Notes under the pieces: generated by a model | Databases searched by the model: none | What the model was told of the DNA's origin: nothing | What the model saw: only the letters and a program-made list of their open reading frames with translations | Shown: positions 14,766 through 49,714 of the stretch, piece after piece | How positions within the stretch are numbered: the first letter of the stretch is position 1 | Layout of the letters: the number at the start of each line of letters is the position of its first letter | From: Baekduia sp. | GTDB taxonomy: Bacteria; Actinomycetota; Thermoleophilia; Solirubrobacterales; Solirubrobacteraceae | DNA: 64,000 bases | Direction: 5' to 3' | NCBI GenBank assembly: GCA_037045385.1 | Contig: JBAOHN010000008.1 | Coordinates: 754,481-818,480, forward strand | Made by a program: the position numbers and the translations under genes

Positions 14766-14766
14766 C

Positions 14767-34011: not shown

Positions 34012-34305
34012 TCAGCCGCGGCGTGTCGTGAGCGTGCGGCTCTTGGCCTGGGCGCCGCTGACGGTGACGCGCAGCTTGGTGCGCAGCGACGGTGTCTTCT
34101 TGAGCTTGATCGTGCCGGTTGCGCGGCAGGCGCCGTTCTTGGTTGAGAGGCGCAGCGTGGTCTTGTAGGTCTTGCCGCCGAACGCGGTTGTGGCCTTGAC
34201 GCTCCCGCTGCAGCGCTTGCCCTTCTTGAGCGCCAGCTTGGCGTTGAGCGTGATCGTGCGACCGGAGAGGCGGGCCTCGATCAGCGGCGGCGTGACCACG
34301 GGTGG
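34012..34305 (-). repeat. conserved 3' module (C-terminal domain coding), copy in P1
   Basis: About 294 nt from the stop codon. Contains the 45-nt string CTTCTTGAGCTTGATCGTGCCGGTTGCGCGGCAGGCGCCGTTCTT (34096-34140), identical in P1-P4. Confidence 0.85.
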
Positions 34306-35937
34306 CGGATCGTTGCGGACGGCCGGCGCCGGCGGGTCGGTGACGCTGACCACCGAGCTGCGCGTCGCGGAGTTGCCGGCGGCGTCGGTCGCGGTGACGC
34401 TGACTCGGTACTCGCCGGTAGCGGCGAATGTGTGGCTGGGCGATTCGCCGGTCGCCGAAGTGCCGTCACCGAAGTCCCAGCGGACGCTCCTCATCTCGGA
34501 CCAGTCGTCGGAGGCTTCGGCCGAGACCGGCACTTCCTCGCCGGTGGTCGCTTGGTCCGGCACCGAGAGCGCCGACACCTGCGGCGGGCCGAAGTCAGCG
34601 ATCGCCGCGTGGACCGAGTACCGGCCGCTGGCGGTTGAGGTCCACGCGATGGCCACGTTGCCCTTGAGGTCGCTCTGGGAGACCGGCGTCGAGCTGAGAT
34701 CGACAGACGAGCCTGGAATCGGTGCCGGATCTGCCCAGGCACCGGTCGCGCTGTCGCGGACGGTGATGCCGATGCCCCTGGCACCGGTCACACGGGTCTG
34801 GGCGACGCCTGCAATCGCTCCGGACGGGAGCGGGACGAGATCGGCGAGTCCCCAAGAGGCGTCGGCGACCGGTGTGACCTGCTGCAGCTCGCCCCAACCG
34901 CCGCTCGCGGAGAAGATCCGCGTAGATGTTCCTGCGTGGACCGTCAGGAGGTCGTTGTTCACGATGCTGTTCAGATCGACGGCGAGCCAGGAGACGAGAA
35001 GGTCCCCGCCGCCGAGCGGAGCGACCGACGGTGCGACGTCGAACCAATCGTCGCTGGCGGCGTCGACCGGTGCATCCCAGCTGCTACCGGCCGAGCGCCT
35101 CAGCACCCACGCGGCTGCGTCCGGGCCCGGGTCCGCGAACCAGGTCGCCACCTGACCGCCCGCTCCGTCGCTGACGAGCTTGAGCAGCGCTGCGCCGCCG
35201 GGCTTGCTGAAGCTCTCGGGCACGCTCCAAGTGCTCTGGCTCGAGTCGTAGGTGGTCGTGCCGATGCCGCTACCGCTCCCGCTGTCGAGCGTGAACGCCA
35301 CGGTGATGTCGCCGTCATCGACGATCGCCCGGGGGTTCGACACCGCCAAAGAGCCCGACACGATCTCGCCGGCCGGCCATTGCCCCCCCTGCCCGGCTCG
35401 GCGGGCGGCGACGACGTGCCCGCCGTACTCGCGCCAGATCAGGGTCTGCACGCCGGATCGATCGGTCAGCAGCACAGGATCGGTCGACTCGGCGCCGTTG
35501 TTGCCTCCCGGCGTGTCCGAAAGCCGGTCGGTTGATGTCCACTCCCCCGTAGCGGCGAGCCGGGTCGAGGTCTCGATCTTGGTCACGCCTCCGACGGTCC
35601 GCGACCAGGCGACCGTGACGTCGTTCGACGCGCTCACGGTGATCGCCGGGTTTCCCAGCGCCGCTCCAGGCCCGCTGATCTCCTCTCGTGCCGACCAGCT
35701 CGTATCGCCGGGCGAACGGCGGCTCGAGTACACGTGGGACGCCGCGTCGTCGCCCTCGCCGATCCAGGCTGCGTGCGCCGTCCCGCCGCCGTCGAACCGC
35801 ACCGTCACGCCACCGCCCTGGTGGTCGGGGTCGCCGAGCAGTTCCTCACCGCCGACCCACGGAGCCGCTGATGCGGAGCTCGCAGCGAAGGCCGCGAGCA
35901 GGGTTGCGATGAGCGTGGCGAGAGGCCGGGTACGCAT
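34012..35937 (-). CDS. array paralog P1: secreted repeat/PKD protein with conserved basic C-terminal domain
   Basis: ATG at 35937 gives the signal peptide MRTRPLATLIATLLAAFAASSASA. PKD motif WDFGDGTSATGESPSHTFAATGEYRVSVTATD. Tail ..IEARLSGRTITLNAKL..TLTTRRG. The track ORF over-extends to 36126. Confidence 0.85.
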   Translation of the reverse strand: MRTRPLATLIATLLAAFAASSASAAPWVGGEELLGDPDHQGGGVTVRFDGGGTAHAAWIGEGDDAASHVYSSRRSPGDTSWSAREEISGPGAALGNPAITVSASNDVTVAWSRTVGGVTKIETSTRLAATGEWTSTDRLSDTPGGNNGAESTDPVLLTDRSGVQTLIWREYGGHVVAARRAGQGGQWPAGEIVSGSLAVSNPRAIVDDGDITVAFTLDSGSGSGIGTTTYDSSQSTWSVPESFSKPGGAALLKLVSDGAGGQVATWFADPGPDAAAWVLRRSAGSSWDAPVDAASDDWFDVAPSVAPLGGGDLLVSWLAVDLNSIVNNDLLTVHAGTSTRIFSASGGWGELQQVTPVADASWGLADLVPLPSGAIAGVAQTRVTGARGIGITVRDSATGAWADPAPIPGSSVDLSSTPVSQSDLKGNVAIAWTSTASGRYSVHAAIADFGPPQVSALSVPDQATTGEEVPVSAEASDDWSEMRSVRWDFGDGTSATGESPSHTFAATGEYRVSVTATDAAGNSATRSSVVSVTDPPAPAVRNDPPPVVTPPLIEARLSGRTITLNAKLALKKGKRCSGSVKATTAFGGKTYKTTLRLSTKNGACRATGTIKLKKTPSLRTKLRVTVSGAQAKSRTLTTRRG

Positions 35938-35941
35938 CGGA

Positions 35942-36235
35942 TCAGCCGCGGCGGGTCGTGAGCGCGCGGGTCTTCGCCTGGGCGCCGCTGACGGTGATAC
36001 GCAGCTTGGTGCGCAGCGACGGTGTCTTCTTGAGCTTGATCGTGCCGGTTGCGCGGCAGGCGCCGTTCTTGGTTGAGAGGCGCAGCGTGGTCTTGTACGA
36101 GCGGCCGCCGAAGGCGGTGGTGGCACGCACGGTGCCGCTGCAGCGCTTGCCCTTCTTGAGCGTGAGCTTGGCGTTGAGTGTGATCGTGCGGCCGGAGAGG
36201 CGCGCCTCGATCACCGGCGGGGTCACAACCGGCGG
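35942..36235 (-). repeat. conserved 3' module, copy in P2
   Basis: 36084-36220 matches P3 38002-38138 at 135/137 nt (hand count). Confidence 0.85.
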
Positions 36236-37855
36236 CGGGTCGTCTTCGCTGCCGTCATCGGCCGGCGGCGCCGGCGGGTCGCTGACGGCGATCATCCGCG
36301 TCTCGGTCGTCACGTGCCCGGCGTTGTCGATCGCCGTCACGCGCAGCGAATAGGTACCGGCCGCCGCGTACACGTGCGAGGCGGCTTCGCCGCTCGCCGA
36401 ACCGCCGTCGCCGAACTCCCACGCGGTCGACGCGACCCCGGACAGCGTGTCCGATACGCCCGCCGAGACGGCGACGCGCTCGCCGGTCGTCGCCGTTGCC
36501 GGAACGCTGAGCCCGTCGATGTCGGGGGCATCTCCGTCGCCCTCAGCGACGGCGACCGTCAGCGTCGGCGTGTCGGCGCGCAGCAGCGTGATCGCCGCGT
36601 TGCCGTTGTCGTCGAGCGCGGAGCCGAGCAGGCCGTTCGGCCCGACGCTGCTCGCCTCGCCGAAGAACGGGTCGATGTCGCCCCATCGGCCTCCGGACGG
36701 GCGGAACGCCGAGCCAACCTTGACCGAGCCGCCGTCCAGGATCGCGACCGCGGCGAGCATGTCGCCGTGCCGGTTGACCGAAAGCATCGGGGCGCCGGTC
36801 CAGGCGCTGGCGACCGGTTCTGGGTCGCCCCAGGCCTGCGCGTCGGCGTCGAAGGTCGCGGTGGTGACGTGGGCCTCGTCGGCGAAGTTGCCGCCGTTGA
36901 ACTCCTGCCAGACGACGACGAAGTTGCCGTCGGCATCGGCTCGGGCCTGACCGAAGTAGGTGTTCGGGCCGTTCTTGAACAGGGTGTGCGGCGGCGACCA
37001 CGTGTGGTCCGCGCTCATCGTCGCCGCGTTGATCCCCGTCGACGAGGGGGAGTTCCAGACCGCGACCGCGCGGCCAGCCGAATCGATCGCCGTCCCAGCG
37101 GAGATGTCGTTGCCGTCGGAGAACCCGGTCGTCGCGCCCGACCACTCACCGGTTGCCGGGTCCCGGAGGGCGTAGCGGAGGTGGTTGCCGTTGTCGTAGT
37201 GCTGCCACGAGGCGATCGCGTTGCCGTTCGGCGCGAACGAGAGTGCAGGGTCGCCCTGGCCGGTATCGGGCTCGTCGAAGGTCTCTGCGAGCGTCAAAGC
37301 ATCGGCGCCTGCGGGGAACCGCCAGAGCCGTGAGCGCCAGTCGCCGCCGCCCGTCGATCCGGTCGTGAGGAAGTAGACGCCGTCCGGGCCGCTCGCGATC
37401 GCGCTGCCGGTGAACATTTCGCCCGGCTCGGTCGCCGACGTCGCGGGCGTCCAACCCTCGTTCGGGTGGGAGATGGCGTACTCGCCTGTGCCGTTGGCCA
37501 GGAGCCAGAGCACGACCGCCGTCCCGTCCGGGCCGACGGCGACGCGCAGGTTGGTGTCGAACACGGCGATGTTCGAGTCCGGGTCCGAGACGACGCGCGC
37601 CTCGCCCCAGGTCCCGTCAGCCTCGCGGACCCTCGCGAATGCGCGCCGCAGTCCGCCTGCGATCTGGTTCCAGGCTACGACCACGCGCCCGTCAGGTGAC
37701 GTGGCGACATTCGCGTAGTGGGCGGCACCGCTCTCAGCGGAGAACGTCTGGGCCGGTTGCCAGACCGGCTCGAGGCCGGCGGCCGATGCAGCCGTCGTGC
37801 CTGCGGCCAGGGCGGCGGCAGTCAGCAGGGCGGTGGTGGTCAGGCGAGCGCGCAT
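35942..37855 (-). CDS. array paralog P2
   Basis: Signal peptide MRARLTTTALLTAAALAAGTTAASA, PKD WEFGDGGSASGEAASHVYAAAGTYSLRVTAID, conserved tail. The stop lies 4 nt from the P1 start. Confidence 0.85.
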   Translation of the reverse strand: MRARLTTTALLTAAALAAGTTAASAAGLEPVWQPAQTFSAESGAAHYANVATSPDGRVVVAWNQIAGGLRRAFARVREADGTWGEARVVSDPDSNIAVFDTNLRVAVGPDGTAVVLWLLANGTGEYAISHPNEGWTPATSATEPGEMFTGSAIASGPDGVYFLTTGSTGGGDWRSRLWRFPAGADALTLAETFDEPDTGQGDPALSFAPNGNAIASWQHYDNGNHLRYALRDPATGEWSGATTGFSDGNDISAGTAIDSAGRAVAVWNSPSSTGINAATMSADHTWSPPHTLFKNGPNTYFGQARADADGNFVVVWQEFNGGNFADEAHVTTATFDADAQAWGDPEPVASAWTGAPMLSVNRHGDMLAAVAILDGGSVKVGSAFRPSGGRWGDIDPFFGEASSVGPNGLLGSALDDNGNAAITLLRADTPTLTVAVAEGDGDAPDIDGLSVPATATTGERVAVSAGVSDTLSGVASTAWEFGDGGSASGEAASHVYAAAGTYSLRVTAIDNAGHVTTETRMIAVSDPPAPPADDGSEDDPPPVVTPPVIEARLSGRTITLNAKLTLKKGKRCSGTVRATTAFGGRSYKTTLRLSTKNGACRATGTIKLKKTPSLRTKLRITVSGAQAKTRALTTRRG

Positions 37856-37859
37856 CGGG

Positions 37860-38153
37860 TCAGCCTCTGCGGGTGGTGAGGGTTCGGCTCTTCGCTTGGC
37901 TGCCGCTGATCGTCACGCGCAGCTTGCTGCGCAGCGACGGGGTCTTCTTGAGCTTGATCGTGCCGGTTGCGCGGCAGGCGCCGTTCTTCGAGGCGAGGCG
38001 GAGCGTGGTCTTGTACGAGCGGCCGCCGAAGGCGGTGGTGGCGCGCACGGTGCCGCTGCAGCGCTTGCCCTTCTTGAGCGTGAGCTTGGCGTTGAGTGTG
38101 ATCGTGCGGCCGGAGAGGCGGGCCTCGATCACCGGCGGAATCACGACCGGCGG
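37860..38153 (-). repeat. conserved 3' module, copy in P3
   Basis: See the P2 copy. The 45-nt identical string is at 37944-37988. Confidence 0.85.
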
Positions 38154-39791
38154 CGCGTCGTCCGCATCGTCGGCGTCATCCGCCGGCGGCGCCGGCGGGT
38201 CGCTGACCGTGATCGTGCGAGTCGTCGTGGTCGACTGGCCCGACAGGTCGGAGCTCGTGACGCGAACCGTGTAGGTGCCGCCGGCGGCGTACGTGTGCCC
38301 GACCGAGGAGCCGGTCGCCTCCGAGCCGTCGCCGAACGACCAGTTCGTGGTCTCGACACCCGACCAGAGGTCGAACGGGGAGACAGAGAACGACACACGC
38401 TCCCCGGCGACCGCCGTCTGCGGCACCGACACCGCGCTGAGCGTCGGACCGAACGCATCACCGACTACGACCGCGATTGTGGTGTCGGTTGTGGCCCAGG
38501 CGGCAAAGGCGTTGCCGCGACGATCGGTTGCTATCGCCGGGATACCCGGCACCGGACCGGTCGCGATCGGGTTGGCCGAGGACAGCACCTCACCGGAGCC
38601 GAAGTCGCCGCCGCTCGGGCGGTGGAGCCCGACCAGCGCAGGAACGCCGCCGTCGATCCCGAAGACGACCGCGGTGATGTTGCCCGACCCGTCTGCGGTC
38701 AGTGTCGCGGCGCCGCCGTTCGGGCCGATGAGATCCTCGGTCGGCGACCACTGACCGGTCGCGGTGTCGAAGGTCGTCATCAGCGCGCGCGGGAGCAGCA
38801 AGTCGTCGGAGAAGTCGAACTCCTGCCAGAGCGCGACGAACTGCCCGTCGTGGTCGGCGGCGATCCGCGTCAGCACCGCATTCGGCCCGGCTACGAACTT
38901 CGAGCCGCCGTCGGTCCAGACTCCGGAGCTGCCGTCGAGGCTGGCGACGTGGACGTCGGTCGCGGTCCCTGAGGACCAGACCATCGCCGCGTCGCCGTCG
39001 TCGTTGAACGCGAGCGCCGGGTCCTGCGTGCCGTTGCCGTCGGTCGTGGCGATCGTCGCGATCGGCGACCAGTCGCCGTTGCCCGCGTCGTAGGTCGCGC
39101 CCTGCATCTCCGGGGTCCCGGAGTACGGGTTCTTCCACCACGTGGCGACGGCGTCGCCGTGCGAGTTGTAGGCCAGCCGGGGGTTCGCGTAGCCGGCGTC
39201 GTCCGGCAGGTCGATCTCGCCCGTGACCGAGAAGTCGTCGCTGCCCGCGGGGCGCGTGCGGATGCGCAGCCGCTTGTCGCCGCTCAGGTTGCTGAGGTTC
39301 ACGCCGGCCATTGCCGAGCCTGGCCCGGCGACCGTGTAGCCGCCTTCGAAGCTCTCGCCGCTGTCGGCGAAGGAGGCCGCGGTGCTCCACTGCGACGAGC
39401 CCGGCTGACGAGTGCTCGCGTAGACGACCGAGAAGTCGCTGTTGCCGAACGCGACGCTCGCGGAGCCGTCTGCGGCGGTCGCGAGCTGGTACGAGCCGTA
39501 GCCGGAGATGTCGATGCCGGCCGGGGAGATGTAGCTGACCGGCGTCCAGGCGCCGGCGGCGATCCGCGTGCGCTGCGCGAGCCGCAGGTGGCTGCCGTCG
39601 CTCTGCGCCCAGATCACCGAGACGGTTCCGTCGTCGGCGGCGGAGATCTTTGGCCAGCCGGTGGCGGCTGCCGGCGAGGAGATCGGCTCAGGCGTGCCCC
39701 ACGAAGGCGCTGCGGCGCCTGCACTCGGTATCGGCGCGGTGCAGGCGGCAGCGGTGAGCAGAGCAGCGAGGAACGGACGGCGCGAGGTCAT
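37860..39791 (-). CDS. array paralog P3
   Basis: Signal peptide MTSRRPFLAALLTAAACTAPIPSAGA, PKD WSFGDGSEATGSSVGHTYAAGGTYTVRVTSSD, conserved tail. The stop lies 4 nt from the P2 start. Confidence 0.85.
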   Translation of the reverse strand: MTSRRPFLAALLTAAACTAPIPSAGAAAPSWGTPEPISSPAAATGWPKISAADDGTVSVIWAQSDGSHLRLAQRTRIAAGAWTPVSYISPAGIDISGYGSYQLATAADGSASVAFGNSDFSVVYASTRQPGSSQWSTAASFADSGESFEGGYTVAGPGSAMAGVNLSNLSGDKRLRIRTRPAGSDDFSVTGEIDLPDDAGYANPRLAYNSHGDAVATWWKNPYSGTPEMQGATYDAGNGDWSPIATIATTDGNGTQDPALAFNDDGDAAMVWSSGTATDVHVASLDGSSGVWTDGGSKFVAGPNAVLTRIAADHDGQFVALWQEFDFSDDLLLPRALMTTFDTATGQWSPTEDLIGPNGGAATLTADGSGNITAVVFGIDGGVPALVGLHRPSGGDFGSGEVLSSANPIATGPVPGIPAIATDRRGNAFAAWATTDTTIAVVVGDAFGPTLSAVSVPQTAVAGERVSFSVSPFDLWSGVETTNWSFGDGSEATGSSVGHTYAAGGTYTVRVTSSDLSGQSTTTTRTITVSDPPAPPADDADDADDAPPVVIPPVIEARLSGRTITLNAKLTLKKGKRCSGTVRATTAFGGRSYKTTLRLASKNGACRATGTIKLKKTPSLRSKLRVTISGSQAKSRTLTTRRG

Positions 39792-39862
39792 CGTCCTCCA
39801 GTGATCGGCCGCCGGTCGCCGCCCCTTCAGGCGACGCTGGACGACTTTGGACGCGGCTGCGG

Positions 39863-40156
39863 TCAGCCGCGGCGGGTCGTCAGCGTGCGGCTCTTGGTCT
39901 GGCTGCCGCTGACGGTGACGCGCAGCTTGGTGCGCAGCGACGGTGTCTTCTTGAGCTTGATCGTGCCGGTTGCGCGGCAGGCGCCGTTCTTGGTCGCGAG
40001 GCGAAGCGTGGTCTTGTACGAGCGGCCGCCGAACGCGGTCGTTGCGCGCACGGTGCCGCTGCAGCGCTTGCCCTTCTTGAGCGACAGCTTGGCGTTGAGG
40101 GTGACCGTGCGGCCGGCGAGCCGCGCCTCGATCAGCGGCGGGTTCACGACCGGTGG
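39863..40156 (-). repeat. conserved 3' module, copy in P4
   Basis: The 45-nt identical string is at 39947-39991. Confidence 0.85.
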
Positions 40157-41740
40157 AGCGTCGTCGTCCGAGTCATCGTCCGGCGGCGCCGGCGGGTCGC
40201 TGACCACGATCGTCGCCGACCGTGACGCGCTGTTGCCGGACTCGTCGGTCGCCGTGACGGTGACGTCGTATGTCCCGGCGGCGAACGTGTGCGACGCGGA
40301 TGCGCCGCCGGCCGACCGGCCGTCGCCAAAGTCCCAGTCGTAGCTGATGTCGCTCCAGACATCCGATGCGGACGCGTGCATGGTCACCGGAACGCCACTG
40401 ACAGCGCTCGCCGGCACCGACACCCCGGAGAGGCTCGGTGCCGAGCCATCGAGCGCGGCGACGTTGACGCGTTCGCCGGACCCGTCGACCCACGTGACAA
40501 GGCCGTTGCCGAGCCCGTCGAGGTCGCCGCGGACGAGGCCGTAGTTGTAGTTGAAGCTGAACTCGTCGACCGCGAGGCCGGAGTCCCACGCCGAGGCGCC
40601 GTGCGCGAGCAGTGCGCCTCCGACGCCGGGGAGCTGCGCGCCGTCATTCGCGCCGAGCATGGAGACGAAGGCGTCGCCAGCCGCGTTGGTGTGCACGGAC
40701 GGCATCCCGCCGAGGTTCGGCGTCATGTTGACCTCAGGTCCCCAGCCCCCGGCTCCGGGCTCGAAGGAGCGCCGGATCGCGGTCGCGCTGTACATCGAGG
40801 TCATCCGCTGGTAGGTCGCGACGAACCGGCCGCCGGGAAGGGCGCCGACGCTGGCAAGCAGCTCTGGGCCGGTGCCGATCTGATCCGCGGCGCTCCAGTC
40901 GCTCGACCCGGCGGGCAGATACGCCGCCGTCGCGATGTCATCGCCGATCCAGACCGCCGTCGCGCTGCCGTCGGACGCGATGTCGACGCCCTGATGAAAG
41001 GCGTTGCCGGTCATCGTGGTGATGTCGTCCGCCTGCTCCCACGAACCGGCCTCCGCGCCGAAGCGGGCGGCGCGGAGTGCCTTCTGACCACCCACGTTCG
41101 CGATCCAGAAGGCGACGCCGGAGCCGTTTCGGTTGACAGCCGCCGCAACGCTGTTCAGCCCGGTGGCGTCGCTCTGGGCGAGCTCGGTGACCGGGCCCCA
41201 ACCGGTGCCGTCCGCGTCACGCACGCTGAGCCGCACCGTGTACGAGCCGGCGTCGTCGTTCGTCCAGACGGCCACCATCCGGCCGCCGGGGAGCGGAGCG
41301 AGCGACGGCCCGGTGTCGTTGCCGACACCGGGCTCGACCGGCGTGGGGGTGCTCCACACGCCGCTGCTCTTGGTCTTCGTGGCGGTCCACAGCTCGGAGG
41401 AGCCGGACCAGGCGACCGTGACGTTGCCGTGATCGTCGACCTCGGTCACGTACTCCTGGTTGAGGCTCGCAGCCGGGCCCGCGACCTCGGTGGTTGCCGA
41501 CCAGGTTCCGCTCGAGCTACGCGAGTCGTTGACGAGGGCTAGATCGTTGCCACGCTGCTCGAAGCGCAGCACGTCGACGGCGCCGTCGGGGCCGCCGGCG
41601 ACCTCGGGGAAGCCGGTCACGCCGCCCGCAGCTTCGAACGAGTGCGGCTCGGTCCAACCGGCGGCGCCCGCGACCGGGGCGGCGGCCGCGCAGGCGGCAG
41701 CGGTGAGCAGAGCAGCGAGGAACGGACGGCGCGAGGTCAT
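39863..41740 (-). CDS. array paralog P4
   Basis: Signal peptide MTSRRPFLAALLTAAACAAAAPVAGA (first 17 codons plus RBS identical to P3), PKD WDFGDGRSAGGASASHTFAAGTYDVTVTATD, conserved tail. Confidence 0.85.
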   Translation of the reverse strand: MTSRRPFLAALLTAAACAAAAPVAGAAGWTEPHSFEAAGGVTGFPEVAGGPDGAVDVLRFEQRGNDLALVNDSRSSSGTWSATTEVAGPAASLNQEYVTEVDDHGNVTVAWSGSSELWTATKTKSSGVWSTPTPVEPGVGNDTGPSLAPLPGGRMVAVWTNDDAGSYTVRLSVRDADGTGWGPVTELAQSDATGLNSVAAAVNRNGSGVAFWIANVGGQKALRAARFGAEAGSWEQADDITTMTGNAFHQGVDIASDGSATAVWIGDDIATAAYLPAGSSDWSAADQIGTGPELLASVGALPGGRFVATYQRMTSMYSATAIRRSFEPGAGGWGPEVNMTPNLGGMPSVHTNAAGDAFVSMLGANDGAQLPGVGGALLAHGASAWDSGLAVDEFSFNYNYGLVRGDLDGLGNGLVTWVDGSGERVNVAALDGSAPSLSGVSVPASAVSGVPVTMHASASDVWSDISYDWDFGDGRSAGGASASHTFAAGTYDVTVTATDESGNSASRSATIVVSDPPAPPDDDSDDDAPPVVNPPLIEARLAGRTVTLNAKLSLKKGKRCSGTVRATTAFGGRSYKTTLRLATKNGACRATGTIKLKKTPSLRTKLRVTVSGSQTKSRTLTTRRG

Positions 41741-41811
41741 CGTCCTCCTGTGATCGGCGGCGGGCGCCAGCGTCCAGAGGTGCTGGTGGACGACGTTGGA
41801 CGCGCTTCCGG

Positions 41812-42105
41812 TCAGCCACGGCGGGTCGTCAGCGTGCGGCTCTTGGCCTGGGCGCCGCTGACGGTGACGCGCAGCTTGGTGCGCAGCGACGGTGTCTTCT
41901 TGAGCTTGATCGTGCCGGTTGCGCGGCAGGCACCGTTCTTGGTCGCGAGCCGGAGCGTGGTCTTGTACGTGCGCCCGCCAAAGGCGGTCGTCGCGCGCAC
42001 GGTCCCGCTGCAGCGCTTGCCCTTCTTGAGCGTGAGCTTGGCGTTGAGGGTGATCGTGCGGCCGGAGAGGCGGGCCTCGATCACCGGCGGAATCACGACC
42101 GGCGG
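41812..42105 (-). repeat. conserved 3' module, copy in P5
   Basis: Same module with a few substitutions (for example GGCAGGCACCG). Confidence 0.8.
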
Positions 42106-43719
42106 CTTCGGGTCGTCCGAGTCGTCGGCGTTGTCGTCGCGGGCCGGCGGAGCGGGCGGGGCGCTGACGACGAGCTGCCGGGTCTGCGTGGCCGAGTGCC
42201 CGACGGCGTCGGTTGCGGTTACGCGCACCGAGTAGGTGCCGGCGGCGCTGTAGGCGTGTGAAGCAGATTCCCCGGTCTTGCGAGCGCCGTCGCCGAAGTC
42301 CCAGGAGACCGAGTCGACGTCGGACAGGACGTCGAACGCCGACGCGCTGACCGGTACCTGCTCACCGACCGTTGCGGTGGCAGGCACCTCGACATCCGAG
42401 ATCGCCGGAGGCGCGCCGTCGCCGGTCGCGATGACGAGCGTGCCGTCGGCCCGCTCCCAGGCCATCGCGACATCGCCGTGCGCGTCCGCGCCGATGCCGG
42501 CTCCGTCGAGCAGGCTGATCGTCTCGCCGGCGAACTCGGTGTCGTCGGCCCAGCTCGTCCCGAGCGGCTCGCGCACCGTCGTGCCGACGTGGATGTCCAT
42601 GAAGCTCGACCCCGAGAACTGGGCGCCGAAGATCGAGCCGTCCGGGCGCTGCGCAAACGAGGGCACGACCGTCATCCCGTTCCCGTCACCGAAGGCCGCG
42701 GGCGCTGCGAACGCGCTGTCGTCCCGGCCGATCGACGTGTGGCCCGAGCCGTAGGACATGCCGTCGGTCGAGATCCAGGTCACGATCAGCGAGTCGCTTG
42801 CGTCGAACCCGAGCCAGCCGCTGACCGACTGCGCCTCGGGTGCCTGTTCGGCCGCCGTCCACGTGCCGTTCAGCCGGCGCGCGAACGTGGCCTTCGAGAC
42901 CCAGTTCGGCGAAGAGCCGGTCTGCTGGATCCAAATCGCGCCGAGCTGGTCACCGGCCGCGTTGACGGCGAACTTGAGGCCGTAGCCGCTGTCGGGCGCT
43001 CCGACCGTGAGATCGGTCGGGGGGCCCCAGCTCTGCGACCCGGCGGCGCGCTCGGCGACGATCTGCCGCTGCGAGCCGCCGCTCTGCTCGCGCCAGCCCG
43101 CGGTCAGCGAGCCGTCCGGGAGCGCGACGATCGCCGGGTCGTAGCCGGGCGCCGAGTTGACCGGCTCTGGCGGCCCCCACTCGCTGCTCCCCGGCGCGAG
43201 CGCGCGCAGATAGACCCGATCGCCGTTGTAGATCGCGTACGTGGTGCCGTCCGGGGCGGTGGTGAAGTTCGTCCCCCCGGAAGCGACGTTCGGGTCCGAC
43301 AGCGTCTCCTGCGGCCCCCACGTTCCACTGTCGCGGTCGAGCCGGCGGACGGTCGCCTTCCAGGTCGAGCCGTCGTTGACGGTCAGGCCGAGAAGGAGGT
43401 CACCGTCTGCCGTGGTGGCGGCGTTCACGCCGGTCGGGGTTTCGCCGTTCTCGCTGATGAACTGGGTCGGTCCCCAATCGCCTCCGGCACGCCGGAACCG
43501 CGCCTTGAGGCGTTGCTGCCCACCGTTGCTGATCGCCCAGCCGGCGAACAGGTCGCCGGACGGCGTCATGTAGCCGATGATCCCCTGGCCGTCGGCCTCG
43601 CCGGGAGCTGTGACTGCGACCGGCGTCTGCCAGGTCGGCATCGGCAGGTCTGCGGCAGCGGGCGCCGCGCAGGCGACCGTCGCGGCGATCGTGGCAATTG
43701 CAGTCGGGTGAACGCGCAT
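41812..43719 (-). CDS. array paralog P5
   Basis: ATG at 43719 (MRVHPTAIATIAATVACAAPAAA) is preceded by CCGATCAC as in P3/P4. The alternative GTG at 43764 overlaps the P6 stop. PKD WDFGDGARKTGESASHAYSAAGTYSVRVTATD, conserved tail. Confidence 0.8.
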   Translation of the reverse strand: MRVHPTAIATIAATVACAAPAAADLPMPTWQTPVAVTAPGEADGQGIIGYMTPSGDLFAGWAISNGGQQRLKARFRRAGGDWGPTQFISENGETPTGVNAATTADGDLLLGLTVNDGSTWKATVRRLDRDSGTWGPQETLSDPNVASGGTNFTTAPDGTTYAIYNGDRVYLRALAPGSSEWGPPEPVNSAPGYDPAIVALPDGSLTAGWREQSGGSQRQIVAERAAGSQSWGPPTDLTVGAPDSGYGLKFAVNAAGDQLGAIWIQQTGSSPNWVSKATFARRLNGTWTAAEQAPEAQSVSGWLGFDASDSLIVTWISTDGMSYGSGHTSIGRDDSAFAAPAAFGDGNGMTVVPSFAQRPDGSIFGAQFSGSSFMDIHVGTTVREPLGTSWADDTEFAGETISLLDGAGIGADAHGDVAMAWERADGTLVIATGDGAPPAISDVEVPATATVGEQVPVSASAFDVLSDVDSVSWDFGDGARKTGESASHAYSAAGTYSVRVTATDAVGHSATQTRQLVVSAPPAPPARDDNADDSDDPKPPVVIPPVIEARLSGRTITLNAKLTLKKGKRCSGTVRATTAFGGRTYKTTLRLATKNGACRATGTIKLKKTPSLRTKLRVTVSGAQAKSRTLTTRRG

Positions 43720-43760
43720 CGGTTCTGTGATCGGCGGGGCGCGCGCGATCTTGCGGCGCG

Positions 43761-44054
43761 TCACCCGCGCCGCGTCGTCAGCGTGCGGCTCTTGGCCTGG
43801 CCGCCGCTGACGGTCACGCGCAGCTTGGTGCGCAGCGAGGGGGTCTTCTTGAGCTTGATCGTGCCGGTCGCGCGGCAGGCTCCGTTCTTCGTCGCGAGCC
43901 GGAGTGTCGTCCTGTACGTGCGCCCGCCGAACGCGGTCGTCGCGCGCACGGTGCCGCTGCAGCGCTTGCCCTTCCTCAGCGTCAGCTTTGCGTTCAGCGT
44001 CACGGTGCGACCGGCGAGCCGCGCTTCGATCAGTGGCGCCGTGACGACCGGCGG
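43761..44054 (-). repeat. conserved 3' module, copy in P6
   Basis: Same module, slightly more diverged. Confidence 0.8.
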
Positions 44055-45728
44055 GCGCACCTCAGGCGGAGGGCTGGGCGGGTCGGTGACGACGATCTCT
44101 CGCGTTGTTCGCGCGGCGTTCCCGAACAGGTCGGCCGAGGTCGCCGTGACGGTGTAGGTAGCGGCCCGTGTGTACGCGTGCGTGACGCTCGCCCCGGTTG
44201 CCGCCGCTCCATCACCGAAGTTCCAGCCGGTCGTCAGCGACGGTGCGAACGTGTCGACCGCGTCGGCCGTCATCGGCACCGGTTCACCGGTCGTCGCCGA
44301 TTCCGGCACGGTCACCGACCGCTGCTCTGGTGCGGTCGCGTCACCGACGACGACCTCGAGGTGGCGGTTCGTTCCGGCATCGGCGCGGGCCCAGGCGATC
44401 GCCGGGTTGCCAGCGTTGTCCAAGGCCAGGGACGGCGGCGCCGCGGCCATCGACAGGACGCCGCCGTAGCCGGGGTCGGCCTCGGTGAAGTCGTCCGACC
44501 CGTCCGGGCGGAAGACCAGGTCGCCGGCGACGCCGGTCACGGCGAAGTCGGTCTGGACACGCGAGAAGTTGACGCCGCCGGGATCTGCCGCCATGAACGA
44601 GATCGCGATGTCGTAGTTGTCGTTGACAGTGAGTGCCGGTCCGCCGGAGAAGCGGGTTCCGGCGTCCAGCGTCTCGAGCGGTGACCACTGGCCGGTCTCT
44701 GCGTCACGGGTCCGCATCCGTGCGCGGCTGGTCGGGTACATGACGTTCGGGTCGGCGTCGAACGTGAGCGTCTGCATCACGAGGACGACGTCGCCGTCAC
44801 GATCGCTGGCGACCTGGCTTAGGATCGCGTTCCAGCCCGGTGCGGTCGCGATCACGGTGCTCCAGGCGGCGCCGGGATCGGCGTCGACCGAGGTCGCCTG
44901 CGGCGTGAAGTCGGTGCCGCGGGTCCAGGCGGCGGTCGCGGCGCCGTCCGGCGTCGTCGCCACCGACAGGAACTCAGGGCCGGCGCCGTCGGTGTCGAGC
45001 GTCGCCGGAGCGCCCCATGTGCCGTGCTCGCCGTCGTAGCGCGCCGCCATCACCGCGTGGTCCGAGGTGCCGTCGAGGTTCTTGCCCCAGACGACCGTCG
45101 CGTCGCCGGCGGCGTTGGTCGACAGTGCGACCTGGCCCGGATGGTCGTTGCCGGGATCGACGTCGGTCGGGGCGCCCCAGGTCGCCGCGTTCGCGTCGCG
45201 GATCCGTACGCGGATGCAGTCGCCACCGTGGTAGCTGCTGTAGGCGAGCATCACTCGGCCGCCGCTGAGCGCCTTCACATCGGCGCCGTGGACGCCCTCG
45301 CCGCTCACGACCTCGGCCGCCTCGGACCATGTCCCGCTGCCGGCAAGCCGGGTACGGGCCTTGATCGCCTCGCTGCCGCTGACCCTCCAGACGACCGTGA
45401 GGTTGCCTGCGTCGTCATAGGTGAGCCAACGACCCCGCGTGTAGACCGACTCGCCCGCAGGCGATACCGGATTGGGTGCCGTCCACTCGCCGCTCGGTGT
45501 CCGCTCGGTGAGGTAGAGCCGATCGCCGGTGCCGTCCGACTGGGTGTATGCGATGACGCGCTGATCGCCGCGCGCGGCGATCAGCGGTTGGTCGAGCGTA
45601 GAGTCGCTCGGGGAAAGCGCGATCGATGGGTTGAACCCGACCGCCTGTGCTGAGATCGGCAACCCGGCGAGCATCGTCGCCACGGCGACGGCGCACGAAC
45701 GGAACAGGGGTAGCCGACGAGGTCGCAT
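43761..45728 (-). CDS. array paralog P6
   Basis: ATG at 45728 with SD-like GGTGAGG that overlaps the P7 stop (the track start is GTG 45740). PKD WNFGDGAAATGASVTHAYTRAATYTVTATSAD, conserved tail. Confidence 0.8.
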   Translation of the reverse strand: MRPRRLPLFRSCAVAVATMLAGLPISAQAVGFNPSIALSPSDSTLDQPLIAARGDQRVIAYTQSDGTGDRLYLTERTPSGEWTAPNPVSPAGESVYTRGRWLTYDDAGNLTVVWRVSGSEAIKARTRLAGSGTWSEAAEVVSGEGVHGADVKALSGGRVMLAYSSYHGGDCIRVRIRDANAATWGAPTDVDPGNDHPGQVALSTNAAGDATVVWGKNLDGTSDHAVMAARYDGEHGTWGAPATLDTDGAGPEFLSVATTPDGAATAAWTRGTDFTPQATSVDADPGAAWSTVIATAPGWNAILSQVASDRDGDVVLVMQTLTFDADPNVMYPTSRARMRTRDAETGQWSPLETLDAGTRFSGGPALTVNDNYDIAISFMAADPGGVNFSRVQTDFAVTGVAGDLVFRPDGSDDFTEADPGYGGVLSMAAAPPSLALDNAGNPAIAWARADAGTNRHLEVVVGDATAPEQRSVTVPESATTGEPVPMTADAVDTFAPSLTTGWNFGDGAAATGASVTHAYTRAATYTVTATSADLFGNAARTTREIVVTDPPSPPPEVRPPVVTAPLIEARLAGRTVTLNAKLTLRKGKRCSGTVRATTAFGGRTYRTTLRLATKNGACRATGTIKLKKTPSLRTKLRVTVSGGQAKSRTLTTRRG

Positions 45729-45736
45729 GGTGCGCC

Positions 45737-46030
45737 TCACCCGCGCCGCGTCGTCAGCGTTCGGCTCTTGACCTGGCCGCCGCTGACGGTCACGCGGAGC
45801 TTGGTGCGCAGCGACGGGGTCTTCTTGAGCGTCGTCCGGCCGGTGGCGCGGCAGGCGCCGCCGGCGGTCGCGAGCTTGAGGTTCGTGCGGTAGCGCTTGC
45901 CGCCGAAGACGACCGTCGCGCTGACCTTGCCTGAGCAGACCTGACCGCGCTTCAGCGTCAGCTTGGCGTTGAACGTGATGATCCGGCCGGCGAGCCGCGC
46001 CTCGATCACCGGGGCGGCGATCGCCGGCGG
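45737..46030 (-). repeat. conserved 3' module, copy in P7 (most diverged of the array)
   Basis: ..VIEARLAGRIITFNAKLTLKRGQVCSGKVSATVVFGGKRYRTNLKLATAGGACRATG..TLTTRRG. Confidence 0.75.
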
Positions 46031-47767
46031 CTTGACGTCCTCGACCACCGTGTCCTCGTCGTCCGCGGCCGGAGCATCGGCCGGCGGCGCCGGCGGCGCC
46101 GGCGGCGGGTCGGCCGCTGCGTCGGTGACGGTCACCTGCCTCGTCGCCGAAGTCGAGTGCCCCTGGAGATCCGAAGCCGTGATCGTCACCGTGTAGGTGC
46201 CGGCCGCCCGGTAGGCGTGGGCGGTGCTGCTGCCGGTCTCAGCGCCGCTGCCGTCACCGAAGGTCCAGGTCACCGCCGCCACGCTCGAGAAGAGGTCGAA
46301 CGGGTCGACCGAGACATCAATCTGCTGACCGGTCTCGGCCGATGACGGGACGGCGATGCCGTCGAGCCGCGGCCCGCTCGCGTCGGACACCGCGAACGCA
46401 CTGTGGACGGCCGGGTCGCCCATCGTCCCGTGCGGGTACACGACGAGGCCGTCGAGGTCGTCGGTGAGCGTGCCGCTCGGCGTGCCGAACTGGACGTTGA
46501 CCGTGCTCGTCGTGATCAGCCCGCGATCGGACCACCCGGACGCGCCGCTCTCGCGGACCGCGAGCCCGGCCTTGAGCGTTGCGCCGTTGTCGTCGGAGCC
46601 GATGTAGGCGAGGCTGATGTCGCCGTGCGCGTTGCGCCACGGCATCGGCGCTCCGCCGAACGGGGTCACCGCCTGTGCGCTGTCCCAGGTGTTCGAGGCG
46701 CCGTTGTAGGCCCGTGCGGTGGGTGACGGGATGTAGTAGCCACCCTGGTCGTTGTACTGCTGGTAGGTGAGGACGACGTTGTCGTCGTTGTCGGGCGTCA
46801 GCGCCGGGATGATCACGGCCGCGCCCGATGCCGGCGTCAGCCGTTCCGGCGTGCTCCAGTTGACGGTGCCGGGTGCGGCGACGGTCGCGTAGACAGAGTT
46901 CTCGGCGGTCGGCTGGCCGGATTGGTTGATGTGGACGTCGCCGTCGCTCCAGACCACCACGAGGGCGCCTCCGGAGGAGATCGCGCCGGCGACCTTGTTG
47001 ACGCCGGCTGTCGCCGCCAGCGCCTCGGTCACACCGGAGCAGACACCGTCGCTGCCACAGCGTTTGGCGCGGACGCCCTGGTCGCCGCCTCCGGTCGAGT
47101 AGCTCCAGAACACTGCGAGCTCACCGCTGTCGTTCGAGGAGACCTGCGTGCTCCAGATGTTGAGCGCTCCCTCGTGGATCGTGTTTTCGACCGACCACGT
47201 CGCCGTCCCGGCGGCGCGCCGCGCGATGACGACGTCGTTGTCGCCGGACTCCTGGCGAATGAAGGCAAGGGCGCTCGAGCCGCCGGCGAGCGCCGTCGCC
47301 GTCCCGCCGTAGACGCCGTCGGTCTGCGGGACCATGTCGTTGAGGCTCCAGCTGTCCCACTCGGTCTCGCCGGACAGCAGCGTGTCGACCTCGGTCTCGT
47401 TCCCGGCGTTCCAGATCACCGAGAAGCTGCCGTCCCGGTTCGCCTGCACCTGCGCGTTGTCACCGACATCCTGGCCGGCGGGAGAGAGCCACTCCGCCGC
47501 GCCCCAGGTTCCGTTCGCGTCGCGAACACGGACGCGGAGGCGCCGGTTCGAGCCGTCGATCTGGAACCAGCCGGCGAGGATCCGGTCGTCGGTTCCGAGC
47601 ACGGCGATGCCCTGTCCCGCGACCTCGCCGGCGGTCGACAGCTGCTGTGTTGCGGTCCACGACGGCGGGGCAGCGGTTGCGGCCGCGGGAGCGGTCGCGA
47701 TCACGGCAGCGGTCAGAAGTAGGGCACGGGCGATCGACACGGGGCTCATCGCCTGATCCATCGGCAT
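45737..47767 (-). CDS. array paralog P7
   Basis: Signal peptide ..MSPVSIARALLLTAAVIATAPAAATA (start could be 47767, 47761 or 47749), PKD WTFGDGSGAETGSSTAHAYRAAGTYTVTITASD, longest acidic/Pro linker, conserved tail. Confidence 0.8.
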   Translation of the reverse strand: MPMDQAMSPVSIARALLLTAAVIATAPAAATAAPPSWTATQQLSTAGEVAGQGIAVLGTDDRILAGWFQIDGSNRRLRVRVRDANGTWGAAEWLSPAGQDVGDNAQVQANRDGSFSVIWNAGNETEVDTLLSGETEWDSWSLNDMVPQTDGVYGGTATALAGGSSALAFIRQESGDNDVVIARRAAGTATWSVENTIHEGALNIWSTQVSSNDSGELAVFWSYSTGGGDQGVRAKRCGSDGVCSGVTEALAATAGVNKVAGAISSGGALVVVWSDGDVHINQSGQPTAENSVYATVAAPGTVNWSTPERLTPASGAAVIIPALTPDNDDNVVLTYQQYNDQGGYYIPSPTARAYNGASNTWDSAQAVTPFGGAPMPWRNAHGDISLAYIGSDDNGATLKAGLAVRESGASGWSDRGLITTSTVNVQFGTPSGTLTDDLDGLVVYPHGTMGDPAVHSAFAVSDASGPRLDGIAVPSSAETGQQIDVSVDPFDLFSSVAAVTWTFGDGSGAETGSSTAHAYRAAGTYTVTITASDLQGHSTSATRQVTVTDAAADPPPAPPAPPADAPAADDEDTVVEDVKPPAIAAPVIEARLAGRIITFNAKLTLKRGQVCSGKVSATVVFGGKRYRTNLKLATAGGACRATGRTTLKKTPSLRTKLRVTVSGGQVKSRTLTTRRG

Positions 47768-47818
47768 TCGGCCGCGCCCGGTCGAGCGATCTGGACGATC
47801 GGCCGGTTCGGCCTCCTG

Positions 47819-48112
47819 CTAGCCGCGGCGGGTGGTCAAAGTCCGGCCCTTGGCCTGCTTGCCGGAGATCGTGACACGCAGCTTGGTACGCAGCGACGGC
47901 GTCTTCTTCAGTTTGATCGTGCCGGTTGCGCGACATGCGCCGTTCTTGGTCGCGAGGCGCAGCGTGGTCTTGTAGCTGCGGCCGCCGAAGGCGGTGGTCG
48001 CCTTTACGGTGCCGCTGCAGCGCTTGCCCTTCTTGAGCGTGAGCTTGGCGTTGAGTGTGATCGTGCGTCCGGAGAGGCGGGCCTCGATCACCGGCGGGAT
48101 GACGACCGGCCG
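47819..48112 (-). repeat. conserved 3' module, copy in P8
   Basis: Same module with scattered substitutions. Confidence 0.8.
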
Positions 48113-49714
48113 GTTGTCGTCATCGCCCGAGTCGTTATCGCTCGGCGGAGCGGGCGGGTCGCTGACGGTGATCGTGCGGGTCGTCGTGGTCGGTTGACCT
48201 CTGCCGTCGGTCGCGCGGACGGTGACCGTGTAGGTGCCCCCGGCCGCGTAGGTGTGGCCGGCCTGCTCGCCGGTCGCGGCGCTGCCGTCGCCGAACTCCC
48301 AGCGCACCGACGCGACATCGGACCAGCGGTCGTCGGCCGAAACCGACACCGGGACGCGCTCGCCGGCGGTCGCGGCTGCCGGGACGCTCAGGTCGCTGAG
48401 CGCCGGGCCTGCGCCGTCACCGAGGGAGACCATCACCGTTCCGTCGGACTGTGCCCAGGCCATCACGACGTTGCCCTCGTCGTCGCCGCTGAGGCCCAAG
48501 CCGGCCATCGCGTAGACCGGCTCACCGTCGAAGCTCTTGGCCATCGACCACTCGCCGCTGTCCGGATCCCAGGCGGCCACGCCGGCTGTGACAGACATGA
48601 TCGATGGGCCGAACGGCAACGCGGCGTAGACGGTCCCGTCGGGCCGGGCGGCCGGTTCGAGCATGCCGCTGAAGATGCCGGTGCCGAGCGGTGCGACCTG
48701 CGCCGACCACCCGGTCTCGCCCGCTCGAAGCACGCTGGCGTAGCCGACGAGGTCGGCGCCGGTGCCCGCGAGGCCGGTCTGGACGAAGTCCCCGCGTGCC
48801 GTCAGCGTCAGGCCTGGGGCCGCGCCCGACTGGTAGATGAGGTCGGGCGGGTTCCAGCTGCCGTCGGCCGAGCGGACGACACGCCGGGCTCCGACGTCGC
48901 CGCCCATCTGCTCGAGCCAGAGCAGCACGGCGGTTCCATCGTCGCGGATCCTGCCTGCGGTCGGGAAGAAGCCGGCGGCTTCCCCGGAGATCGTCGTGAC
49001 GTCACCCCACGCGGCATCCGTTGTCGACCGTGACCTGGCGCGCATCACATGGTGTCCGGAGCCGCCGCTCGTGTCGGTCCAGGCGGCGATCTGCTCGCCG
49101 TCGCCAGCCGCGTAGACCCGGGCGCCGCCCGCGTTGTCGGTTCCGGGGGAGGCGTAGGCCGGCGTGTCGAAGCCCACGGCGCCCCGCTGGCGGACCGCCA
49201 CCGCAGCCCGTGAGGTCGACCCGTCGTTCTCGGTCCAGGCGGCAAAGACCCGGCCCGCGCCGTCGGCCGCGAGCGAAGGCCCCCACGAGCCGTTCACGTC
49301 TCCGAGCTGGTCGGACTCCCACTGCTGCGAGTCGGCGAGGAGCATGGCGACCGTCACCCTCGTGACGCCGCCGTTCGAGACTTGGCCGGCGATGAGGAAG
49401 TCGCCGTCAGAGGAGGCGACGGCGGTGATGTTGCTGACGTCGTCGCCGGTGAGGACCGGCTCCTGGGGCCGCCAATCGCCGCCGGGGTCGCGGACCGCGA
49501 CCATGAACGACTGCCCCAGCTCCCAGCCTGCGATCAGCCGGCCCTGCGGCGTCGCTCGCACGTTGACCGGGGCGTTGTCGAGGGTCCCGACCGCCTGCGG
49601 CGTCTCCCAGACCGGCTGCGGCAGCTTGGCGGCGGCCTGCGCGGTGGCAGCCGTCGCTGTCAGCGCGGCCGTAGCCACGAGCGAGCAGAGCAGGGGGAAC
49701 CGGCGCGCAGGCAT
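47819..49714 (-). CDS. array paralog P8 (promoter-proximal)
   Basis: Signal peptide MPARRFPLLCSLVATAALTATAATAQA, PKD WEFGDGSAATGEQAGHTYAAGGTYTVTVRATD, conserved tail. TAG stop, whereas the others use TGA. Confidence 0.85.
   Translation of the reverse strand: MPARRFPLLCSLVATAALTATAATAQAAAKLPQPVWETPQAVGTLDNAPVNVRATPQGRLIAGWELGQSFMVAVRDPGGDWRPQEPVLTGDDVSNITAVASSDGDFLIAGQVSNGGVTRVTVAMLLADSQQWESDQLGDVNGSWGPSLAADGAGRVFAAWTENDGSTSRAAVAVRQRGAVGFDTPAYASPGTDNAGGARVYAAGDGEQIAAWTDTSGGSGHHVMRARSRSTTDAAWGDVTTISGEAAGFFPTAGRIRDDGTAVLLWLEQMGGDVGARRVVRSADGSWNPPDLIYQSGAAPGLTLTARGDFVQTGLAGTGADLVGYASVLRAGETGWSAQVAPLGTGIFSGMLEPAARPDGTVYAALPFGPSIMSVTAGVAAWDPDSGEWSMAKSFDGEPVYAMAGLGLSGDDEGNVVMAWAQSDGTVMVSLGDGAGPALSDLSVPAAATAGERVPVSVSADDRWSDVASVRWEFGDGSAATGEQAGHTYAAGGTYTVTVRATDGRGQPTTTTRTITVSDPPAPPSDNDSGDDDNRPVVIPPVIEARLSGRTITLNAKLTLKKGKRCSGTVKATTAFGGRSYKTTLRLATKNGACRATGTIKLKKTPSLRTKLRVTISGKQAKGRTLTTRRG

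Follow-up and report, generated by a model that had tools for sequence, protein, structure and literature searches.

A basic immunoglobulin-like domain at the C-terminus of secreted propeller proteins in Baekduia, a candidate electrostatic anchor to the cell envelope

Known attachment modules and the Baekduia tail

Gram-positive surface proteins are typically built from a functional domain, a Pro-rich linker that spans the wall and a C-terminal attachment module. Here we describe a basic domain of about 90 residues (hereafter the tail) that ends ten paralogous, predicted secreted proteins of Baekduia sp. (Baekduiaceae, Solirubrobacterales, Thermoleophilia, Actinomycetota), all encoded in one stretch of 64,000 nucleotides of contig JBAOHN010000008.1, which as a whole is called the window below. 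The paralogs are named A to J, and the copy at positions 35942–36235, that of paralog B, serves as reference. The Solirubrobacterales group is Gram-positive and monoderm and has no outer membrane. These bacteria are ubiquitous and abundant in soil (PMC11737030).

Attachment modules of Gram-positive surface proteins have been reviewed (PMC5817068). In the cell-envelope proteases of lactic-acid bacteria, a functional domain is followed by a Pro-rich linker that crosses the wall and by an attachment module at the C-terminus, and the C-terminal domains of PrtB, PrtH and PrtL are Lys-rich, have a pI above 10 and attach electrostatically (PMC10535647). In the TAB domain of Lactobacillus SlpA, phosphate sites lie in a strongly positive cleft; the domain binds the phosphates of teichoic acids, and its affinity for lipoteichoic acid is micromolar (PMC11181022). 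Like these modules, the tail is C-terminal, strongly basic (pI >10), poor in acidic residues and placed behind a linker, and the same charge logic is proposed for it (PMC11181022, PMC10535647). However, SlpA TAB consists of two SlpA motifs in tandem with YxY...KxxN phosphate sites, whereas the tail is a single predicted seven-strand sandwich with a Cys pair; no sequence match joins the two, either among the Pfam families listed for 45 diverse tails or in a profile search of the PDB, and they come from different phyla.

CWB2 and SLH modules resemble the tail in that many paralogs of one genome share one conserved anchor and differ in their functional parts. Some of these CWB2 and SLH paralogs are clustered in the chromosome. 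Their arrangement is different from that of the tail: they are motif triplets (about 90 and 55 residues, respectively) found at either terminus, while the tail is single, always C-terminal and of another predicted fold class. They bind non-covalently to an anionic secondary wall polymer, with conserved Arg residues implicated, and in Clostridioides difficile 29 Cwp paralogs have one common CWB2 anchor (PMC5817068). Proteins anchored by sortase through an LPXTG signal (described in PMC5817068) share with the tail carriers a signal peptide, a head, spacers, a Pro-rich linker through the wall and an attachment element at the C-terminus, but the tail lacks an LPXTG-like motif, a hydrophobic helix and a short charged end. 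Since the attachment element is here a folded domain, covalent anchoring by sortase is not expected.

The C-terminal domain (CTD) of type IX secretion system (T9SS) cargo is also an immunoglobulin (Ig)-like seven-strand sandwich of about 80–100 residues, and it stands on varied Sec-exported passengers, in many cases behind spacers of Ig-like or PKD type (PMC4804311). It is, however, a signal for crossing the outer membrane, is cleaved by PorU and is restricted to Bacteroidota (PMC4804311, PMC5445135), whereas the tail has an actinobacterial host, an extreme basic charge, no match to a CTD model in NCBIfam or in the Pfam families listed and no linked machinery. The tail does show a predicted seven-strand Ig-like sandwich at the extreme C-terminus, as a CTD would, and its fold matches are generic Ig-like ones only. 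All 64 tails collected below are strongly basic and poor in acidic residues, as in the electrostatic class of anchors, and signal peptides are present in the paralogs of the window. Judged by sequence, the tail would at most work like the SlpA TAB, CWB2 or SLH modules, and does not appear to be homologous to them.

The tail domain, its carriers and their evolution

Judging from its predicted structure, the tail represents a family of Ig-like beta-sandwich domains of about 90 residues that fold independently and have not been described before. AlphaFold2 (AF2) modelled the tail alone as a seven-strand sandwich with a mean confidence (pLDDT) of 86.9 and a pTM of 0.74. In the full-length model of paralog B, which is all-beta and has a pLDDT of 82, the tail portion reaches 83–88. 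The strands have a clean periodicity, with hydrophobic residues facing inward and Lys, Arg, Thr and Ser outward. Tails of the window contain 21–24 Lys plus Arg per 90 residues, 10–18 Thr and one acidic residue, which gives a pI of 12 and a net charge of +20 to +23. Such periodicity and composition had been proposed from the letters alone, and the interval 35942–36235 is, as read there, the exact reverse-strand translation of a 97-residue peptide plus stop; besides the stop codon it takes in about nine linker residues beyond the folded domain.

A hidden Markov model (HMM) built from the window copies (alignment A1) and run over the six frames of the window gave exactly ten matches (E 7e–38 to 7e–50), the number counted in the sequence-only reading. 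All are on the minus strand, each at the end of an open reading frame (ORF), and their count is far beyond chance. The two Cys residues, also singled out before, are invariant in these ten tails and in 45 diverse relatives. In the latter set C27, C55 and P67 are invariant and L8, G10, G59, L63 and the penultimate Arg are conserved in at least 90%, while an F/Y pair (positions 37 and 42) makes up all the conserved aromatics. The invariant Cys pair, together with mature passengers that have almost no Cys outside the tail, is consistent with a disulfide, which would form outside the cytoplasm.

To place the tail among known families, 45 diverse tails were scanned singly against Pfam and NCBIfam at E ≤ 1, and the tail of the window was scanned against both collections with no match. 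A T9SS-CTD model (Por_Secre_tail, or TIGR04183, type B CTD) is missing both from the list of 25 Pfam families for the 45 tails and from the full set of 12 NCBIfam families. Wall-binding modules from the list in PMC5817068 (SLH, CWB1, CWB2, LysM, SH3b, WxL, SPOR and the SlpA motif) were absent from the full proteins and from the Pfam families listed, as were carbohydrate-binding module (CBM) families from the latter. NCBIfam models of sorting signals (PEP-CTERM/exosortase-type and related CTERM) did not match the tails, and PKD profiles matched the upstream domain only (B residues 443–522), never the tail, which gave no profile match to Pfam PKD or Big_x families. Weak Pfam matches that recur, to LppM (5 of 45 tails, best E 0.007) and DUF6927 (5 of 45), are far below the cut-offs and were treated as noise. 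Searching the PDB by sequence with a single tail or with the profile gave no meaningful match; the entry 7QLD, an 'S-layer protein' (E 5.7), corresponds to SlpA self-assembly domain I and not to the teichoic-acid-binding domain, and is noise as well. With Foldseek, no PDB structure matched the tail at E ≤ 1e–3 and only generic Ig-like sandwiches were found, the best being the soluble domain of archaeal FlaF (E 4.6e–3, TM ∼0.6); no T9SS CTD structure is among the 50 fold matches listed. An LPXTG-like motif is absent from the last 300 residues of every paralog, a hydrophobic helix from the last 130 (maximum Kyte-Doolittle value, window 19, of at most 1.11) and a PEP motif from the tail. Thus, the domain stays unassigned, as it was at the outset, and none of the three classical endings that had been denied to it (LPXTG, hydrophobic helix, PEP-CTERM) came to light.

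With the tail profile, an exhaustive HMMER search through 1.84 billion representative proteins returned 65 matches at E ≤ 1e–3, of which 64 are genuine; the remaining one (P0065) shows weak, repeated partial matches and is a false positive. A word-indexed homologue search found nothing with a single tail and short fragments only with the 45-tail profile, as the word index evidently misses so biased a sequence, and hence the exhaustive search was needed. Two other approaches were discarded: peptide patterns from A1 run over genome contigs yielded 53 unconfirmed stretches, and a degenerate DNA pattern for LKKxPxxRTK yielded 25 loci in unrelated taxa, none with a tail by HMM. In the genuine matches the tail ends 0–5 residues from the C-terminus, apart from obvious fragments and one outlier at 34 residues. 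Named carriers are the Baekduia sp. metagenome-assembled genome (MAG), Solirubrobacteraceae MAGs and the cultured Nocardioides cavernae; all others derive from metagenome or SRA assemblies. The domain is therefore modular and taxonomically narrow in its observed range.

What is conserved in these 64 tails is net positive charge rather than a particular basic residue, and Lys and Arg interchange freely. Net charge lies between +11 and +28 (mean +0.23 per residue, pI 10–12) and the Lys:Arg ratio spans 2:18 to 26:2. Twelve alignment columns hold Lys or Arg in at least 70% of sequences and 13 more in 40–70%, and E5 is the sole conserved acidic column. Passengers longer than 300 residues are all acidic (pI 4.1–4.8), including those with RCC1 repeats and DUF1929; in the window the passenger bodies have a pI of 4.2–4.6 and a net charge of –25 to –34.

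A typical carrier has 600–680 residues and a BNR-like propeller, with or without PKD, and about 58 of the 64 share this one architecture. The tail does stand on otherwise divergent proteins, as had been supposed: beyond the propellers of the window, whose mutual identity is low, two carriers have RCC1-repeat propellers (P0015, at locus L029, and P0063), one from a Solirubrobacteraceae MAG has a kelch/glyoxal-oxidase/DUF1929 body (P0057), and the 621-residue protein of Nocardioides cavernae (P0059, WP_179620068.1) has an unrelated passenger. Family members devoid of PKD, such as paralog I, also end in the tail. The tail matches no known domain and extends beyond one passenger family; the idea of a general tag holds as to several passenger types and is weakened by their low diversity. 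Every passenger type that could be identified is of propeller type, BNR-like by fold model and RCC1 or kelch/galactose-oxidase-like by Pfam, the last two kinds of repeat being ones that we take to form propellers. This may hint at a functional theme common to the proteins that receive the tail.

In the window, a hydrophobic N-terminal signal peptide precedes the propeller in nine of ten paralogs, and the N-terminus of the tenth (J) lies outside. For the body of B, Foldseek found the sialidase 1w8o (E 6e–14), seven-bladed PLL lectins of Photorhabdus and 1l0q, a propeller+PKD unit from an S-layer protein of an archaeon. Only W83, G211 and G261 are invariant in the ten propellers, which makes a conserved catalytic site unlikely, and a role of the body as a sialidase was rejected for lack of any invariant charged or nucleophilic residue. 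PKD lies upstream of the tail in all paralogs except I, so that the frequent pairing noted earlier stands. The linker was said to be always acidic and rich in Pro and Asp; it is Pro-rich in all ten, while clear acidity is found only in about seven, A, F and I being weakly acidic or non-acidic. The tail of I is also the odd one in sequence (41% identity to B, an insertion of four residues and the ending LAKRT).

Some signal peptides have features of their own. Twin-arginine, Tat-like motifs occur in C and D (MTSRRPFLAALL), in H (ARRFPLL) and in F (RPRRLPLF), and not in A, B, G or I; the sites examined are 39740–39791 (C), 41689–41740 (D), 49660–49714 (H) and 45690–45740 (F), all on the minus strand. 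A Cys within or just past the hydrophobic region (LAALLAC in I) occurs in C, D, E and I and fits a lipobox loosely.

Conservation is very uneven along these proteins. Pairwise identity in the window is about 20–29% in the propeller, about 50% in PKD and about 85% in the tail. Synonymous-codon identity, measured at positions that share one amino acid, is 0.55 in the propeller and 0.56 in PKD, against a codon-usage baseline of 0.53–0.55, and 0.72 in the tail, with 0.77–0.88 for tails of the neighbours A–E. Synonymous identity is thus raised in the tail only, which points to gene conversion, or recent shared ancestry, limited to the tail. Purifying selection acts too, since pairs near the baseline (F–H 0.51, G–H 0.52, C–F 0.60) keep 73–90% identity at the protein level.

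For comparison between genomes we used four tail genes on long Ga0209023 metagenome contigs, at the loci L027, L028 and L030, assumed to come from one genome. Tail identity is 0.85 within the window, 0.76 within the Ga0209023 set and 0.58 between the two, while propeller identity is 0.29, 0.28 and 0.29, respectively. There is one clear orthologous pair, J and L027b, with a propeller identity of 0.42. The paralogs therefore predate the split of both lineages, yet their tails have been homogenised in each genome. A constant anchor homogenised per genome on ancient, fast-diverging propellers would make a clean natural case of domain-limited concerted evolution, and the pattern points to a lineage-specific partner in the envelope, which co-variation could bring to light.

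What the tail may bind

We favour, with middling confidence, the view that the tail is a new non-covalent, electrostatic anchor that holds exported surface proteins to the cell envelope in Baekduia and related Solirubrobacterales. The carriers would first be exported by Sec or Tat, and the basic domain (net ∼+20, pI 12) would then bind an anionic component of the monoderm envelope, mainly by charge. Candidate partners are a teichoic- or teichuronic-acid-like or other acidic wall glycopolymer and possibly anionic head groups of membrane lipids. The Pro-rich linker and PKD would serve as a stalk that keeps the acidic, fast-diverging propeller head off the cell. Surface retention, the anionic nature of the ligand and this geometry of stalk and head we infer from the features given above. 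Every tail in one genome would bind the same lineage-specific partner; one shared partner would keep tails nearly identical through purifying selection and tail-limited gene conversion, leaving the heads free to diverge.

Several lines of evidence are consistent with such an anchor. In the models, both of the tail alone and of the full-length protein, the tail is a confident terminal module set off from PKD by a disordered linker. By analogy, the layout of signal peptide, head, PKD, Pro-rich linker and C-terminal module mirrors that of Gram-positive surface proteins. Conserved charge, acidic passengers, the Cys pair and modularity fit as well, and homogeneity of tails within a genome fits one lineage-specific partner per genome. 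Thus, of the two suggestions made in the sequence-only reading, binding of the basic charge to anionic envelope polymers is the better supported, being backed by charge kept in 64 relatives on acidic passengers with a Gram-positive-like layout.

Other points weigh against the envelope anchor. Most carriers (∼58 of 64) share one architecture, so the tail could have a role specific to this family rather than one in general anchoring, and gene conversion alone could explain much of the homogeneity within a genome, given the synonymous identity of the A–E tails. The location of the carriers at the surface is itself inferred, and a literature search on wall polymers and envelopes of Baekduia and Solirubrobacterales gave nothing useful; a search on surface protein display in Solirubrobacterales found nothing either. 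Simple binding by charge does not explain why the position is strictly terminal and the penultimate Arg near-invariant, and known wall anchors may sit at either end of a protein. Finally, a folded domain with a net charge of +20 might bind external polyanions equally well.

The last point leads to a reading in which the tail is a CBM-like, ligand-targeting domain that directs secreted propellers to a polyanion outside the cell and not to its own envelope; acidic polysaccharides or uronates, extracellular DNA, teichoic acids of other bacteria and charged mineral or humic surfaces are candidate ligands. We think this unlikely, though it has its attractions. In its order of parts, from propeller through Ig-like spacer and linker to a small beta-sandwich at the C-terminus, a carrier looks like a secreted glycosidase equipped with a CBM, the top fold match, a Micromonospora sialidase, bears a C-terminal galactose-binding module, and passengers have lectin- or sialidase-like folds; charge conservation, too, suits any polyanion and not the own wall specifically. 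However, no CBM family is among the Pfam families listed for the 45 tails, and aromatics of the kind usual in CBMs are few (the F/Y pair). Propellers with no conserved catalytic residues leave no enzyme to target, and concerted evolution specific to each genome is easier to reconcile with a lineage-specific partner than with a generic polyanion of the environment.

Tails that evolve in concert within a genome would also be expected if one recognition protein read them all, as in a dedicated sorting or processing signal that a sortase- or PorU-like transpeptidase, or a secretion and assembly system, recognises and then cleaves or processes covalently. The extreme C-terminal position in all 64 relatives on four independent passenger types, the near-invariant penultimate Arg, Pro67 and Cys pair, and the size and seven-strand sandwich that match the T9SS CTD fold class (PMC4804311) would all suit such a signal. 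We nevertheless hold it to be improbable, and the comparison with T9SS sorting domains made from the letters alone was not borne out. T9SS is confined to Bacteroidota and serves to cross an outer membrane (PMC5445135), whereas the host belongs to Actinomycetota; the folds matched are generic Ig-like ones, no T9SS-CTD or other sorting model turned up in the Pfam families listed or in NCBIfam, and no conserved candidate for a processing enzyme lies beside the tail genes in any of five independent contexts (the window, L027, L028, L030 and the Nocardioides locus L035). Conservation of bulk charge with free exchange of Lys and Arg is unusual for a recognition signal, and few passenger types bear the tail. 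A bolder variant, which we regard as a long shot, would make the tail the recognition domain of an undiscovered pathway of surface attachment or secretion in monoderm Thermoleophilia, with a co-evolving lineage-specific partner and possibly cleavage, or covalent transfer to a wall polymer, at the terminal Arg. The finding would gain much interest only if the tail proved to be a true sorting signal.

The charge contrast within each protein (body –25 to –34, tail +20 to +23) might serve self-assembly instead, the basic tail docking on the acidic propeller of a neighbour, head to tail, so as to build a coat or matrix akin to an S-layer; binding to the wall would then come second or not take place. 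Such complementarity is extreme, a propeller+PKD unit is found in the archaeal S-layer protein 1l0q, and one array holds many paralogs. We nonetheless find this very doubtful: propellers only ∼20–29% identical, with almost no invariant surface residues, are unlikely to keep a conserved docking site, the unrelated RCC1 and DUF1929 passengers would also have to dock, and there is no sign of an S-layer in the host group. Scarcely credible, in our opinion, is the view that the tail has no special role and is an ordinary Ig-like spacer whose apparent conservation results incidentally from gene conversion among tandem genes. Conversion does occur, as synonymous identity of the A–E tails exceeds the ∼0.55 of PKD and propeller, but synonymously saturated pairs (F–H, G–H and C–F) keep high protein identity, the unlinked I and J and carriers in other genomes still have a terminal, charged tail with the Cys pair, and a net charge of +20 per 90 residues is not a neutral composition.

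If the electrostatic envelope anchor proves true, the tail HMM will be a sequence signature marking a set of Solirubrobacterales surface proteins, and a single basic Ig-like sandwich will be a new structural solution to non-covalent wall anchoring. The tail might then also be used as a compact surface-display tag for high-GC Gram-positives.

Feature coordinates and neighbouring genes

Eight of the ten tail genes form a tandem array, and I and J lie apart from it (Table 1). Paralogs E, C, D and I are identical to database proteins; E is MEI2702946.1, a 'PKD domain-containing protein [Baekduia sp.]' from a MAG.

Table 1. Positions of tails, genes and protein parts in the window; the last row refers to locus L029
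Feature	Position	Strand	Remarks
Gene of paralog B	35942..37855	-	637-aa ORF, predicted secreted protein
Stop codon of paralog B	35942-35944	-	C-terminal ~90 aa encoded by 35945-36235
Folded basic C-terminal domain, paralog B	35945..36208	-	residues ~550-637; seven predicted beta-strands; Cys572/Cys600; ends TLTTRRG; HMM E 3e-49
Disordered Pro/Asp-rich linker, paralog B	36209..36280	-	residues ~526-549; DPPAPPADDGSEDDPPPVVTPP; pLDDT ~50, no secondary structure in the model
PKD domain, paralog B	36281..36523	-	residues ~445-525; Pfam PKD_4 E 7.5e-15
Acidic beta-propeller body, paralog B	36536..37768	-	residues ~30-440; sialidase/lectin-like predicted fold without conserved catalytic set
N-terminal signal peptide, paralog B	37778..37855	-	MRARLTTTALLTAAALAAGTTAASAA; hydrophobic N-terminus; pLDDT <50 over residues 1-25
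Tandem co-directional array of tail-bearing paralogs A-H (n=8)	34012..49714	-	gaps 4, 4, 71, 71, -4, -4, 51 nt
Tail, paralog A	34015..34290	-	gene 34012..35937; HMM
Tail, paralog C	37863..38138	-	gene 37860..39791; HMM; C identical to database protein P0002
Tail, paralog D	39866..40141	-	gene 39863..41740; HMM; exact database match
Tail, paralog E	41815..42090	-	gene 41812..43719/43764; HMM
Tail, paralog F	43764..44039	-	gene 43761..45728/45740; HMM
Tail, paralog G	45740..46015	-	gene 45737..47767; most divergent among array tails, 71% identity to B
Tail, paralog H	47822..48097	-	gene 47819..49714; HMM
Divergent tail, paralog I	56535..56822	-	gene 56532..58277; HMM E 1.4e-37
Tail, paralog J	62106..62381	-	gene 62103..beyond 63998; N-terminus past window edge
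RCC1 carrier, locus L029	7604-10276		Pfam

The rest of the window is ordinary chromosome, with dnaX, aspartate kinase, asd, an ABC-2 exporter, Sdh/Frd, AidB, a KatG-like peroxidase, a P450, SelO and others, and it holds no sortase-like or other candidate sorting enzyme. Locus L027 and the right part of the window are in synteny, both with a tail gene, AidB, an RDD protein, an M50+CBS peptidase, a PKD-less tail gene and SdhA. The tail genes of L028 and L030, the RCC1 carrier of L029 and the Nocardioides gene sit among unrelated metabolic genes.

The RDD protein and the M50 (site-2-protease-like)+CBS peptidase are encoded on both sides of the PKD-less paralog I, at 58942–60387 and 55328–56506, respectively, both on the minus strand, and again in L027 at 12047–15154. 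The N-terminal half of the RDD protein consists of repeats of about ten residues ('RIDVxxLVxx'). The peptidase is the only one that recurs near a tail gene, probably owing to synteny by descent. We do not take either protein as a functional partner of the tail, as AidB and SdhA are kept in the same synteny and other loci have unrelated neighbours.

Immediately upstream of the array, a 557-residue ORF (49779–51452, minus strand) has a signal peptide and the motif GHSLGG (GxSxG), with no Pfam match at E ≤ 0.01; possibly, it encodes a secreted protein like the alpha/beta-hydrolases and shares a transcript with the array. A 588-residue ORF at 10817–12583 on the minus strand has no Pfam match and good coding statistics (G+C at third codon positions, GC3, of 0.93). 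Between the RDD gene and paralog I, on the opposite strand, lies a leucyl/phenylalanyl-tRNA-protein transferase gene (58276–58953, plus strand; Pfam Leu_Phe_trans). It should be noted that the G+C content of the window is 70.7% and that the real genes are overlapped by long ORFs of high GC3, antisense or over-extended, which are artefacts of high G+C, for example at 35913–36353 (plus strand) and 34012–36126 (minus strand); the latter, a 704-residue ORF, extends over gene A into the tail of B, and the true start of A is the Met at 35937.

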